From an uncultured bacterium (GTDB taxonomy: Bacteria; Verrucomicrobiota; Kiritimatiellia; RFP12; UBA1067), in the NCBI GenBank assembly GCA_902761275.1, contig CACWJS010000016.1, forward strand, positions 1,581 to 65,580: a DNA stretch of 64,000 nt. Direction: 5' to 3'. Under the pieces are notes generated by a model. The model saw only the letters and a list, made by a program, of their open reading frames with translations. It did no database searches and had not been told where the DNA came from. The translations under genes were made by a program, and so were the position numbers. Positions within the stretch are counted from its first letter, which is position 1; each line of letters starts with the position of its first letter. Positions 13,155 through 15,889 of the stretch are shown here, piece by piece.

Positions 13155-15889
13155 GCGAAGAGCTTCGCAAGCTTCTCGAGCTGCGCGACCTTTTCCTTGT
13201 TCTCGGCAAGCTTGCGCCTCGCCTCGGCGACGACCGCCTCTGGCGCGTGCGCTACGAAGTTCTCGTTCGCGAGCTTCGCTTCGGCAGACTTGATGAACCC
13301 ACCGATCTTCGCGAGCTCGCCCGCGATGCGCTTCGCCTCGGCCGCCTTGTCAACAAGACCTTCGAGCGAGAGGTAGACTGTGCCGAACTTCGTGATCTTC
13401 GACGGCATCGCAAGATCGCTGCCAGCCGGAACAAACTCGACCGACTCGGCACGCATGGCCTTGGCAAGAACTTTTATCTCTTCCTCGGGCAAGGGTTCGG
13501 GGGTGCCTGAACCCCCGTCCGTTCCGCGCGCAATCGTCACCTTCACGAACGTCGCGGGCGGGACCTTGTACTCGGCCCTCAGCGCACGAATCGCGGTGAT
13601 CGCCTCACGCTTCGCGTTAACAAACTGGTAGTTCTCCTCGGTCACGCCCCAAGCCGACTTCTCGGCATCGGAGTACCCTTCGGGGAATTTCTGAAGCATG
13701 ATCGTCTCACCATCCTTGAGGAAGCCGAGCTGGTGCGCGACTTCTTCTGTGACGAACGGCATGTAGGGATGGAGAAGACGAAGCGCCTTCCAGAAGACAT
13801 CGCGGAGAATCGCAACCGACACTGGCTTGTTGGGCGAATCCTTGACGTACTCGACGTAGCCGTCGCAAATCTGCGTCCAGAAGAAGTCGTAGACGGCGAG
13901 AGCACCGTCCTGGATGCGGTAGGACTCGAGGATCTCGTTGACCTTGCGGCAGGCGAGATCGGCGGCAAAGAGAATGTGCTTGTCGTCCGAAGAGAGGTTG
14001 AAAGGTTGAAAAGTTGAAAGGTTGAAAGGTTGCGTCCCGAAGTCTCGACTTTTCGACTTTTCGACATTCAACTTTTCAACTTCCGCTTCCTGCATCAGCA
14101 GGAAGCGAGCCGCGTTCCAGATCTTCGTCGTGAAGTTGCGACCAATCTCGAACTTCTCCTTGCTCACCTTCGAGTCGCACTCGAGCGAGGTGATGAGCGC
14201 GATCGAGAAGCGAAGCGCATCGGCGGAATACTGGTCGATCAACTCGAGCGGGTCGAGGGAATTGCCCTTCGACTTCGACATCTTCGAGCCATCAGCCGCG
14301 CGGACGATGCCGTGAATGACGATGTTCTTGAACGGCGGCTTCTTCATGAAGTGGATGCCCGCCATCATCATGCGCGCGACCCAGAAGAAGATGATGTCCT
14401 GCGCCGTCACGAGATCCGTCGTCGGATAGTAGTAGTCGAGGTCCTTAGTCTTCTCCGGCCAGCCCAAAGTCGAGAACGGCCAAAGCCATGAGCTGAACCA
14501 CGTGTCGAGAACGTCGGGATCCTGCTCGAGATCGGCAGCCGTCACAGACGGATCGATCGCCTTCGCCTTTTCAAGCGCAAGCTCGGCAGTCTCCGCAACG
14601 ACGACTTTGCCGTCGCCGAAGTAGTAAGCGGGGATTCGATGGCCCCACCAGAGCTGGCGCGAGATGCACCAGTCCTGGATGTTCTCCATCCAGTTGAAGT
14701 AGATCTTCGACCAACGGTCGGGGACAAACTTTACCTCGCCCGACTTGACGGCTGCTATCGCGGGCTCCGCAAGCGGCTTCATCTTGACGAACCACTGCTT
14801 CGAAAGGCGAGACTCAACCGTCTCGTGGCAGCGATAGCAATGGCCGACCTGGTTGTCGAGATCTTCGATATGGTCGAGGAAACCGCCCTCATCGAGGTCA
14901 GCGACAATCGCCTTGCGACACTCGAAGCGATCCATGCCGCAGTACTTCACGCCGGCGAGCTCGTTCATGTGGGCGTCGTCGGTCATGATGTTGATCTCTT
15001 CGAGACCATGGCGCTTGCCGACAAGGAAGTCGTTGGGGTCGTGCGCCGGCGTGATCTTCACGATGCCGGTGCCGAACTCGCGGTCAACATAGTCGTCGCT
15101 AATGACGGGAATCTCGCGCCCCGTGAGCGGCAGGATCACGGTCTTGCCGACGAGGTGCGCATAGCGGTCGTCCTTCGGGTTCACCGCCACCGCCGTGTCA
15201 CCGGGAAGAGTCTCGGGACGCGTCGTCGCGACCATCACATAGTCCTTGTAGGGCTCGCCCTTCACGCCCTTCGCGCTACCGACGACGGGATAGCGAACAT
15301 ACCAGAAGTGGCCGTGGTTGGGCTCGTGTTCAACCTCGTCGTTCGCAAGCGCCGTGCCGCACCGCGGGCACCAGTTGACGATGTAGTTGCCCTTGTAGAC
15401 AAGACCCTCGTCGTAAAGCTGCGTGAAGACCTTTGCAACGGCCTTGGAGCAGCCCTCGTCGAAAGTGAAGCGCTCCCTGAGCCAGTCGGTCGAGTTGCCG
15501 AGCATGCGCTGCTGGTGGACAATCGTCCCGCCGTACTGCTTCTTCCACTCCCAGACGCGCTCGAGAAACGCCTCGCGCCCGAGATCCTGACGGCGCTTCC
15601 CTTCCTTCTTGAGCGCCTTCTCGACTACGTTCTGCGTCGCGATACCCGCGTGGTCGGTGCCGGGGAGCCACAGCGTGTTCCTGCCCTGCATGCGGCGCCA
15701 CCTGACCAGGATGTCCTGGATCGTCTGGTTGAGCGCATGGCCCATGTGCAGGATGCCCGTCACGTTCGGCGGCGGGATTACGACTGAATACGGTTCGCGC
15801 CCGTCAGGCTCCTGGTGAAAATAGCCGTTCTTCTCCCAGATCGGGTACCACTTGGCCTCCGCGGCCTTTGCATCGTAGTTCTTGTCCAT
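13151..15889 (-). CDS. valS: valine--tRNA ligase
   Basis: 912-aa ORF. HIGH-type PNVTGILHMGHA, KMSKS present, C-terminal coiled coil. Confidence 0.95.
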   Translation of the reverse strand: MDKNYDAKAAEAKWYPIWEKNGYFHQEPDGREPYSVVIPPPNVTGILHMGHALNQTIQDILVRWRRMQGRNTLWLPGTDHAGIATQNVVEKALKKEGKRRQDLGREAFLERVWEWKKQYGGTIVHQQRMLGNSTDWLRERFTFDEGCSKAVAKVFTQLYDEGLVYKGNYIVNWCPRCGTALANDEVEHEPNHGHFWYVRYPVVGSAKGVKGEPYKDYVMVATTRPETLPGDTAVAVNPKDDRYAHLVGKTVILPLTGREIPVISDDYVDREFGTGIVKITPAHDPNDFLVGKRHGLEEINIMTDDAHMNELAGVKYCGMDRFECRKAIVADLDEGGFLDHIEDLDNQVGHCYRCHETVESRLSKQWFVKMKPLAEPAIAAVKSGEVKFVPDRWSKIYFNWMENIQDWCISRQLWWGHRIPAYYFGDGKVVVAETAELALEKAKAIDPSVTAADLEQDPDVLDTWFSSWLWPFSTLGWPEKTKDLDYYYPTTDLVTAQDIIFFWVARMMMAGIHFMKKPPFKNIVIHGIVRAADGSKMSKSKGNSLDPLELIDQYSADALRFSIALITSLECDSKVSKEKFEIGRNFTTKIWNAARFLLMQEAEVEKLNVEKSKSRDFGTQPFNLSTFQPFNLSSDDKHILFAADLACRKVNEILESYRIQDGALAVYDFFWTQICDGYVEYVKDSPNKPVSVAILRDVFWKALRLLHPYMPFVTEEVAHQLGFLKDGETIMLQKFPEGYSDAEKSAWGVTEENYQFVNAKREAITAIRALRAEYKVPPATFVKVTIARGTDGGSGTPEPLPEEEIKVLAKAMRAESVEFVPAGSDLAMPSKITKFGTVYLSLEGLVDKAAEAKRIAGELAKIGGFIKSAEAKLANENFVAHAPEAVVAEARRKLAENKEKVAQLEKLAKLFA
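13995..14083. repeat. octamer-repeat block (both orientations) embedded in-frame in valS
   Basis: ggttgaaaggttgaaaagttgaaaggttgaaaggttg...cgacttttcgacttttcgacattcaacttttcaac. Translated within valS as [30 protein letters not shown]. Confidence 0.9.

Follow-up and report, generated by a model that had tools for sequence, protein, structure and literature searches.

Among the described systems, the Rickettsia palindromic elements (RPEs) are palindromic repeats that lie in frame within housekeeping open reading frames (ORFs), at structurally tolerant positions, as related in the passages of PMC10969869 that deal with them (Ogata 2000, 2002). A second group consists of short tandem repeats. The sections of PMC4679880 on the TAACTGA heptamers of Beggiatoaceae, Cyanobacteria and Bacteroidetes (MacGregor 2015) describe them as mostly intergenic and near start codons, stop-rich in one orientation, occasionally located within ORFs and then mainly at protein ends, and patchily distributed across phyla; a regulatory role in translation or protein binding is proposed there, but only proposed. 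Cyanobacterial short tandemly repeated repetitive (STRR) heptamers and "long simple sequence repeats" (LSSRs; Mrazek 2007) appear in the same source as intergenic repeats of 5-11 nt. Here, we study a block of octamer repeats embedded in frame in valS, the valyl-tRNA synthetase (ValRS) gene of an uncultured bacterium of the Kiritimatiellia (assembly GCA_902761275.1, contig CACWJS010000016.1, positions 1,581 to 65,580). This whole stretch of 64,000 nt is referred to as the window, and all positions are counted from its first letter.

In our judgement, the block is probably a copy of an intercistronic octamer-array hairpin, tolerated in frame in a permissive ValRS loop as a selfish-repeat passenger. 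The commonest between-gene repeat of this bacterium is the very octamer that composes the valS block, and in the stop-bearing arm of the block a 7-nt unit and a CGA codon keep the reading frame open.

The repeat block and the octamer family

The host gene of the block occupies positions 13151..15889 on the minus strand and encodes 912 aa without an internal stop in the ORF list. Its assignment to the class Ia valyl-tRNA synthetases is secure: the product carries the Pfam domains tRNA-synt_1 (E 1.5e-141), Anticodon_1 and Val_tRNA-synt_C and, as HIGH-type and KMSKS motifs, LHMGHAL and KMSKSKGN, Thermus thermophilus ValRS (1GAX) aligns with it over residues 2-905 (E 8e-212), and 1gax_A is the top Foldseek match of its structure model. 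An exact look-up did not find the window's ValRS protein among the protein records. Two ORFs that overlap the block, 14030..14491 on the plus and 13642..14067 on the minus strand, were rejected as by-products of the repeat without support.

The block itself (13995..14083, minus strand; 89 bases) is an imperfect palindrome built from two inverted arrays of the octamer RGTTGAAA, which were recovered by Tandem Repeats Finder (TRF; rows 13995-14032 and 14045-14082) and by an inverted-repeat search, the arms being 71-100% complementary in the inverted-repeat comparison. On the plus strand, positions 13995-14032 read (AGGTTGAA) x4.8, and positions 14045-14083 read (TCGACTTT/TCAACTTT) x4.9 in the inverse orientation. 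The coding strand reads gaa gtt gaa aag ttg aat gtc gaa aag tcg aaa agt cga gac ttc ggg acg caa cct ttc aac ctt tca act ttt caa cct ttc aac ctc tct and encodes V604-S633, i.e., 30 residues after a glutamate (E), flanked by WNAARFLLMQ and DDKHILFAADL.

As transcribed, the 5' arm (14045..14083, minus strand) has the GTTGAAAA orientation. It is composed of the units GTTGAAAA, GTTGAAT, GTCGAAAA, GTCGAAAA, and GTCGAGAC, and encodes EVEKLNVEKSKSRD. The second unit comprises only 7 nt (14066..14072; ATTCAAC on the plus strand). Three units read GTCGAAAA where GTTGAAAA is expected (G at 14047, 14055, and 14063 of the plus strand), and the first of these T>C variants creates the arginine codon CGA (14045..14047) at a place where TGA would appear in frame if the unit were canonical. 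A search of the window revealed no second copy of this variant, GTCGAAAAGTCGAAA (unit GTCGAAAA), outside valS; the arm with T in place of C occurs in the valS alleles L169, L162, L166, and L163. The centre of the palindrome, a 12-nt spacer (14033..14044), is hypervariable between alleles; the spacer and the degenerate fifth unit jointly encode ..DFGT.. and contain a CUUCGG motif. The 3' arm as transcribed (13995..14032, minus strand), in CCTTTCAA orientation, is free of stops in all three frames and encodes 14 residues.

An earlier note on this DNA, made from the sequence alone, had described about 90 bp of octamer repeat in both orientations within an uninterrupted valS of 912 aa, located between the conserved segments WNAARFLLMQ and DKHILFAADL, with GTCGAAAA replacing GTTGAAAA in the stop-bearing arm and CGA at the sole position where a canonical unit puts TGA in the valS frame. 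Sequence, TRF rows, and codon view agree with this description throughout, and each of its sequence statements proved correct.

The octamer is strongly overrepresented in the window. The 16-mer GGTTGAAAGGTTGAAA has 40 matches with at most two mismatches, versus 0.05 expected, and at nine places TRF reports arrays with a period of 8 and copy numbers of 4.8 to 13.1; their lengths range from 38 to 112 nt, and fixed ends are absent. The eight arrays besides the valS block are all intergenic, often within operons, which bears out the designation of the repeat as intergenic-type in the earlier note. One is located in the trpB-trpA spacer (1242..1312), where the trpB ORF enters the array by 17 nt and ends at a TGA supplied by it. 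The arrays in the trpC-trpB spacer (2483..2548) and between the genes for a short-chain dehydrogenase/reductase and a major facilitator superfamily (MFS) transporter (22121..22181) each end 4 nt before the ATG of the following gene, trpB and the MFS gene, respectively. Further arrays are found upstream of tpiA (9201..9240) and between a helix-turn-helix/cupin gene and an acyl-CoA synthetase gene. Inverted arrangements occur twice: in the speA-speE spacer (48800..49444), where the arrays 48800-48911 and 49340-49444 flank a small 23S_rRNA_IVP ORF, and at 53291..53451, where the arrays 53291-53383 and 53408-53451 are separated by a 24-nt spacer. Both have the same arm polarity as valS, in the speA-speE spacer with respect to transcription, and among the intergenic members the pair at 53291..53451 comes closest to the valS block.

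A role of the arrays as Shine-Dalgarno sequences was considered and is unlikely, as both orientations of the octamer occur upstream of genes. Other short-unit families in the window are GGAGTT, GGTCAGG/GAGTCAG, GGGGAAC, AACTTTA, and ACGCAGAG. An Rfam scan of the window returned five tRNAs and no match at any array.

Beyond the window, exact (RGTTGAAA)x4 arrays are present in more than 116 contigs of GTDB genomes (loci L170-L285) from several phyla with GC contents of 31 to 71%, among them rumen Kiritimatiellae, Lentisphaera, and many Bacteroidota. Cultured carriers include Flavisolibacter ginsengisoli DSM 18119 and Galbibacter orientalis DSM 19592. Our literature search found no description of RGTTGAAA arrays and nothing on Kiritimatiellae in combination with tandem repeats, and a database search with the array peptide (TFQPFNLS)x5 matched four hypothetical proteins of tiny size, which provides no census of arrays within ORFs. 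Thus, the octamer family is widespread and unexplained.

That the block is an assembly chimera, or a collapse at a repeat, is hardly credible. Short-read unitigs do break within the left array, where contigs end at positions 14024 and 14003, as is expected because it is a repeat. However, in three independent bovine gut or rumen metagenomes (X1, X2, X4; Logan), contigs enter the block from either side, and in all three runs the two unitigs overlap and agree with the window throughout the block; no difference is found at 14036-14083, the three TCGAC units included. The ORF is continuous, and homologous in-frame blocks with the same 7-nt unit are present in valS of four other assemblies (L162, L163, L166, L169) produced by different assemblers. 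The doubt raised in the earlier note, that reads might expose a chimera, is thereby removed.

Reading frame, hairpin strength, and history of the loop

The block is restricted to part of the close relatives. In the best GTDB relatives, L001-L003 (80-83% identity), and in all distant ValRS, the loop is short and free of repeats; the outcome that would have spoken against an insertion, namely distant orthologues sharing the residues, did not occur. The interval from RFVLLS to LADRF comprises about 14 residues in T. thermophilus versus 36 in the valS product. In an AlphaFold2 model of residues 470-912 (71 sequences; mean predicted local distance difference test score, pLDDT, of 87.6), the KIWNAARF helix (model residues 108-143) is extended through EVEKLNVEK, model residues 141-160 have a pLDDT of 55-63, and residue 165 of the model opens the next helix, while the flanks reach 96-98. 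According to this model, the block joins helices one and two of the anticodon-binding bundle; it would prolong the preceding helix and then form a loop of low confidence, modelled as disordered. In all, the block adds about 20-25 residues. The earlier proposal of a variable surface loop of the anticodon-binding region holds as far as a loop between confidently modelled helices and its variability in relatives are concerned; its location on the surface is predicted by the model.

In CCTTTCAA orientation, the octamer contains no stop in any frame, while in GTTGAAAA orientation TGA falls in one frame of three. Given the 8-nt period, three consecutive canonical units must therefore meet a stop. 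In the valS block, GTTGAAT resets the 8-nt phase, and the next two units fall in stop-free frames. The heptamer is common to all five block-bearing alleles, which argues for a single origin. At the TGA-prone unit, the relatives end the arm (AGC CCG or AGT CCA), and the window has an extra unit that reads AGT CGA. As the arm of the relatives is one unit shorter, the three T>C changes are peculiar to the window lineage. Removal of the stop needs just one of them.

The three changes also affect folding. They produce C.A mismatches in the sense RNA and G.U pairs in the antisense RNA. The sense RNA of the window allele folds with -26.8 kcal/mol (z -1.75 versus shuffles), compared with -37.3 kcal/mol (z -4.0) for the L162 allele and -36.4 kcal/mol (z -5.9) for the L163 allele. 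Hence, the sense hairpin drops from about -37 to -26.8 kcal/mol with the T>C changes, and the antisense RNA of the window allele stays at -48.1 kcal/mol (z -7.2). This pattern suggests that the window lineage was selected to weaken a strong hairpin within an essential mRNA. The view of the earlier note, a tolerated insertion that was cleaned up later, is thus supported and extended by the phase reset and the weakened sense hairpin, besides CGA in place of TGA. The order of these changes, insertion first and clean-up second, is suggested by the phylogenetic distribution of the sequences.

The loop was surveyed by a protein search with residues 464-763, followed by inspection of the DNA of twelve alleles. 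At least four unrelated cassette types occupy the same position. Cassette O, the octamer hairpin, is found in the window, L169, L162, L166, and L163. Cassette H is made of (GGGGAAC)n heptamers (L161, L164), and GGGGAAC also occurs between genes of the window at 10764-10780. Cassette G is a GGGGAC..GTCCCC hairpin followed by CTTTCCAA units (L168, L081), and cassette C is a GGCCAAAC..GTTTGGCC hairpin (L165, L164) that is also present at another locus of a related metagenome-assembled genome (MAG; L198). A neighbour-joining tree built from the protein sequence of the flanks shows the cassette types scattered: the sister of the window (O) is P0006 (G), the sister of P0002 (O) is P0004 (H), and P0031 (O) is placed in a distant clade with non-O alleles. 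The nearest backbones, P0006/L168 and P0004/L161, thus have loops quite different from that of the window. L161, with flanks 95-96% identical to the window, carries a heptamer loop; L163, with flanks of 77-79% identity, carries the octamer block. Since the block is shared by lineages with flanks as divergent as these, it is old or has been exchanged, and is not a recent private insertion.

Within class O, the arms are 85-100% identical (38 of 39 aligned 3'-arm bases between the window and L163), and the spacers share 30-57% in all pairs but L169/L162, which have identical spacers. A hypermutable centre is generally expected in long palindromes. Either the cassette has been exchanged between lineages by recombination, or it has been held alike by concerted evolution or constraint. 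The loop is a recurrent hot spot and not the site of a one-off insertion. The insertion claimed in the earlier note consequently stands in so far as the block is absent from L001-L003 and distant ValRS, and has to be revised in so far as a single event gives way to a recurrent hot spot.

Several of these observations are also bearing on growth of the arrays in situ, without any transposition-like insertion. Short ancestral seeds in the loop would have been expanded via slippage of replication or switching of templates, with the likeness to intergenic arrays reflecting the same genome-wide mutational process and bias. Possible seeds are at hand: the 5' junction of L002 reads GCC GTG GAG AAG (cf. 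GTT GAA AAG), and most relatives have CTT TC. before (G/T)CC GAC GAC at the 3' junction. A target-site duplication and fixed element ends were not found, and array lengths vary from 38 to 112 nt. Exact (RGTTGAAA)x4 arrays occur in unrelated phyla over a GC range of 31 to 71%, which fits a process better than a single element. We nevertheless hold this explanation to be quite unlikely, as an inverted pair with the arm polarity of the intergenic pairs is hard to obtain via slippage alone, and as unrelated cassettes, each of which also occurs elsewhere in these genomes, swap at one site in near-identical backbones.

Another explanation would be that the hairpin is a selected cis-acting nucleic-acid element of valS, e.g., an RNA processing or pausing site, an antisense structure, or a DNA signal, so that the loop would be maintained for its hairpin instead of just tolerating it. 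The stems of the octamer class are conserved and their loops vary, and the same pattern recurs in the GGGGAC-GCCGGA/ACCGGC-GTCCCC hairpin class as well as in the GGCCAAAC/GGCCAGAC..GTTTGGCC class, the latter with a G.U-compatible change. The arms diverge less than the surrounding synonymous sites and remain AT-rich, although low arm divergence is also explained by cassette exchange between strains. The antisense hairpin of the window allele is kept at -48 kcal/mol. At z -1.75, its sense hairpin is degraded, contrary to what would be expected if an mRNA hairpin were selected for. Inverted arrays flanking a 23S_rRNA_IVP ORF do recall RNase III-processed intervening sequences; yet several close alleles (L161, z -0.98; L081, z -0.68) have no significant structure, more distant orthologues have none, and no Rfam family matches. 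Overall, we regard a cis-acting element as unlikely.

For the passenger hairpin that we favour, the following course of events can be proposed. A copy of the genome's intercistronic octamer hairpin would have lodged in frame in the inter-helix loop of ValRS and would be transcribed and translated as part of the enzyme, to whose function it probably adds nothing. Translation is suggested by the frame and the avoidance of stops, both kept in five alleles; for the same reason, removal of the block at the RNA level, in the manner of an intron or intervening sequence, was judged unnecessary. Survival would have required edits of the stop-bearing arm, i.e., the phase-resetting 7-nt unit and, at the TGA-prone unit, truncation of the arm in the relatives or T>C in the window genome. 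Two further T>C changes in the window lineage would break pairs in the sense RNA only and plausibly relieve ribosome stalling at, or RNase attack on, an mRNA hairpin of about 37 kcal/mol. The palindrome centre would be mutationally unstable and the arms kept alike, which could come from concerted evolution or from cassette exchange between co-resident strains. The loop may have been refilled repeatedly because it is among the very few non-lethal sites of ValRS in genomes with a very high load of short tandem repeats.

A number of findings weigh against this proposal. Between the window and L163, third-codon positions differ at 2 of 24 sites in the arms versus 108 of 280 in the flanks (p = 0.003), with a similar result for L166; the arms are thus more conserved than a neutral passenger predicts, and they stay AT-rich though valS has a third-position GC content (GC3) of 0.81. 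At the valS junctions, neither a target-site duplication nor an empty site at nucleotide resolution was found, and the outgroup L002 has GTGGAGAAG and CTTTCG at two junctions, which may be seeds or relics, so that a single event of insertion is deduced rather than observed. Contigs of rumen metatranscriptomes cover the flanks and a different, 72-nt allele, which by its length would belong to the GGGGAC-hairpin class; the window's own block was not found among them.

If the proposal holds, the locus offers a view at single-nucleotide level of how an essential gene accommodates a repeat, by phase reset, stop removal, and weakening of an mRNA hairpin. With so many natural alleles, this one loop would amount to a ready-made insertion-tolerance experiment in a class I tRNA synthetase, and the alleles provide a handle on the origin, movement, and uniformity of the intercistronic arrays.

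Further repeat-bearing loci in the window and its relatives

ValRS is not the only protein of the window with repeat-derived residues. The ORF of an alpha-2-macroglobulin (40991..47017, minus strand; 2008 aa; Pfam MG2, A2M, bMG10) contains an in-frame inverted pair of the GGAGTT-hexamer element at 44055-44135 that encodes GSWSSKLELEKGTIPLSNSNSKLELN and is, after the valS block, a second case of a repeat hairpin within an ORF. The MFS transporter gene (22186..23472, plus strand) has one in-frame copy of the GGAGTT element (AATTCCACTCTCCAACTCAAGACTCCAACTCCAACTC) at 22765-22800, in the central loop (FHSPTQDSNSNSK) of the protein. A comparison of about 30 relatives showed the loop to be hypervariable, with other repeat-derived fillers, e.g., SDRIDKIDRISKTDNPVNPVNPVQN. 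Both cases fit a high genome-wide input of repeats that is filtered by selection to a few permissive loops and is not specific for ValRS.

A second variable site, likewise a hot spot, exists in valS itself, after WWGHRIPAY (about 14600-14650, residues ~421-445). L162, L165, L081, and L164 have array- or hairpin-derived inserts there, with peptides such as SEELKVKSEEL and GGGGAGATCACTCCCC; the window allele is repeat-free at this site, which corresponds to the position of a CxxC...CxC zinc knuckle in some orthologues (L167). These parallels also bear on the idea of protein-level diversifying selection on the ValRS loop, e.g., for escape from a ValRS-targeting agent, with repeats as raw material. 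Extreme loop diversity among near-identical backbones and cassette types decoupled from phylogeny are what it would predict. However, the same behaviour of a cytoplasmic MFS loop, of the second valS site, and of alpha-2-macroglobulin points to genome-wide mutational input, no candidate selective agent is known, and the peptides are of low complexity and modelled as disordered, which renders this idea very unlikely.

In L164, a related rumen MAG, the second valS site (1125-1175) carries a heptamer array that reads TAC TTG AAA GGG TAA CAG GGA ACA GGG AAC GGG GAA CAG CAG GTG TTC, with an in-frame TAA and a GTG restart 24 nt after the stop. The gene is called as two ORFs, which reflects either a split ValRS or a sequencing error. 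Among the relatives whose valS is called in fragments, only L164 shows an in-frame stop inside an array; breaks in L162, L165, L163, and L166 were rejected as repeat-induced because they coincide with N runs or with duplications or deletions of the assembly. Such blocks disrupt short-read assemblies and gene calls in rumen MAGs, and the valS calls of many relatives are fragmentary.

The speA-speE spacer deserves a description of its own. The ORF between its inverted octamer arrays of about 100 nt encodes a PF05635 protein (23S rRNA intervening-sequence protein; 138 aa, E 7e-33), and local GC falls to 0.535 at 48800-49444. Homologous ORFs are also located near arrays in L258 and L221. In L162 and L165, speE and the arginase-family gene speB adjoin an ATP_bind_3/tRNA cluster, from which they are 38 kb apart in the window (47067-48794 versus 9692-9893). 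Since the speE/speB breakpoint abuts the octamer array at 48800, an array-mediated rearrangement is suggested.

A bolder interpretation would regard the short-tandem-repeat hairpins of these rumen Kiritimatiellia not as decaying junk but as active elements that are kept alike in their nucleotide sequence and serve as exchangeable cassettes in permissive loops of essential proteins. They would be swapped by recombination between co-resident species, give rise to a trans-species polymorphism at ValRS 601-634, be able to split an essential gene (L164, with a possible two-piece ValRS), and perhaps share a mechanism with the array-flanked 23S_rRNA_IVP ORFs. We consider it speculative and unlikely. 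If it were true, the presence of the octamer arrays in Bacteroidota, Lentisphaerota, and further phyla would hint at a system, so far undescribed, that spreads horizontally and creates or mobilises repeats.

Several intergenic regions contain composite arrays (33862-33950, 36265-36440, 54267-54334, 25585-25617, and 26276-26327), the grpE-dnaJ and argG-grpE spacers included. Their units are GGTCAGG/GAGTCAG, GGAGTT, ACGCAGAG, CTCCTGA, and AACTTTA, and several of them, in tandem, contain AGGAG-like motifs in one orientation. At 28037-28122, a perfect 42-nt tandem duplication (CGCTTCCCCAAGGGTCGCGAACCCCCTCAAGGGGCGGTTACG x2) is located between genes beside CTCCAA and CCTCTGCG arrays; each copy includes a hairpin-like CCCCTCAAGGGG. 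Three consecutive tRNA genes identified by Rfam on the minus strand (9708-10062) lie under a spurious ORF of 460 aa (9217..10599).

Comparison with described repeat systems

Many palindromic copies per genome, placed in frame in unrelated and often housekeeping ORFs, are common to the RPEs and the family represented by the valS block. As with RPEs, the block is a palindrome from a family dispersed over the genome, it lies in frame at a permissive position where orthologues lack it, and it supplies an extra peptide segment compatible with fold and function, although its translation is predicted here. The differences are equally clear. RPEs are discrete elements of about 150 bp with a conserved peptide, whereas the valS material is a variable-length pair of arrays of 8-nt units without fixed ends; a full-length consensus is lacking, as the arrays span 38-112 nt and the spacers of homologous blocks are unrelated. 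RPEs reside in a reduced intracellular genome, while the valS host is a free-living rumen member of the Kiritimatiellia with 59% GC, and alternative cassettes in different strains, as found at the valS loop, distinguish it from RPEs. To our knowledge, the sequence of the octamer unit is unrelated to RPEs. Thus, the valS block does not belong to the RPEs.

With regard to its material, the octamer family resembles the TAACTGA, STRR, and LSSR repeats. Its arrays consist of head-to-tail units, of 6-8 nt as in TAACTGA/STRR and within the 5-11 nt of this class, and exceed chance expectation; they are mostly intergenic and often located a few nucleotides upstream of start codons, ORFs end in their stop-bearing orientation, and the other orientation occurs occasionally within ORFs. 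The patchy distribution over phyla, suggestive of horizontal spread, is shared as well. The units of this genome (RGTTGAAA, GGAGTT, GGTCAGG, GGGGAAC, AACTTTA) differ from TAACTGA. Moreover, in-ORF cases of TAACTGA concern protein termini or hypothetical proteins, whereas in valS an inverted pair with an edited stop-bearing arm is located in the middle of an essential enzyme.

Two other systems share single traits. [quoted passage not shown] The arms of the octamer hairpins are, in contrast, tandem arrays, no discrete unit or terminal inverted repeats were seen, and the 40 window proteins scanned included no REP-associated tyrosine transposase (RAYT), other transposase, or Y1 domain; membership of the valS block in the MITEs or REPs is unproven. 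Intervening sequences of 23S rRNA resemble the region 48800-49444 in having an inverted-repeat stem with a PF05635 ORF in the loop, a likeness of sequence layout alone, as the region sits in an mRNA spacer (speA-speE) and not in rRNA. The valS block, unlike such intervening sequences, has no ORF in its loop.

Under the proposed explanation, the valS block would add a free-living gut bacterium, a member of the Planctomycetes-Verrucomicrobia-Chlamydiae (PVC) group, to the hosts of selfish DNA within protein-coding genes, of which Rickettsia is the best known, and arrays of 6-8-nt units to the kinds of repeat concerned. By analogy with the described systems, it may best be characterized as RPE-like in its behaviour and as short-tandem-repeat (TAACTGA/STRR/LSSR) in its material.

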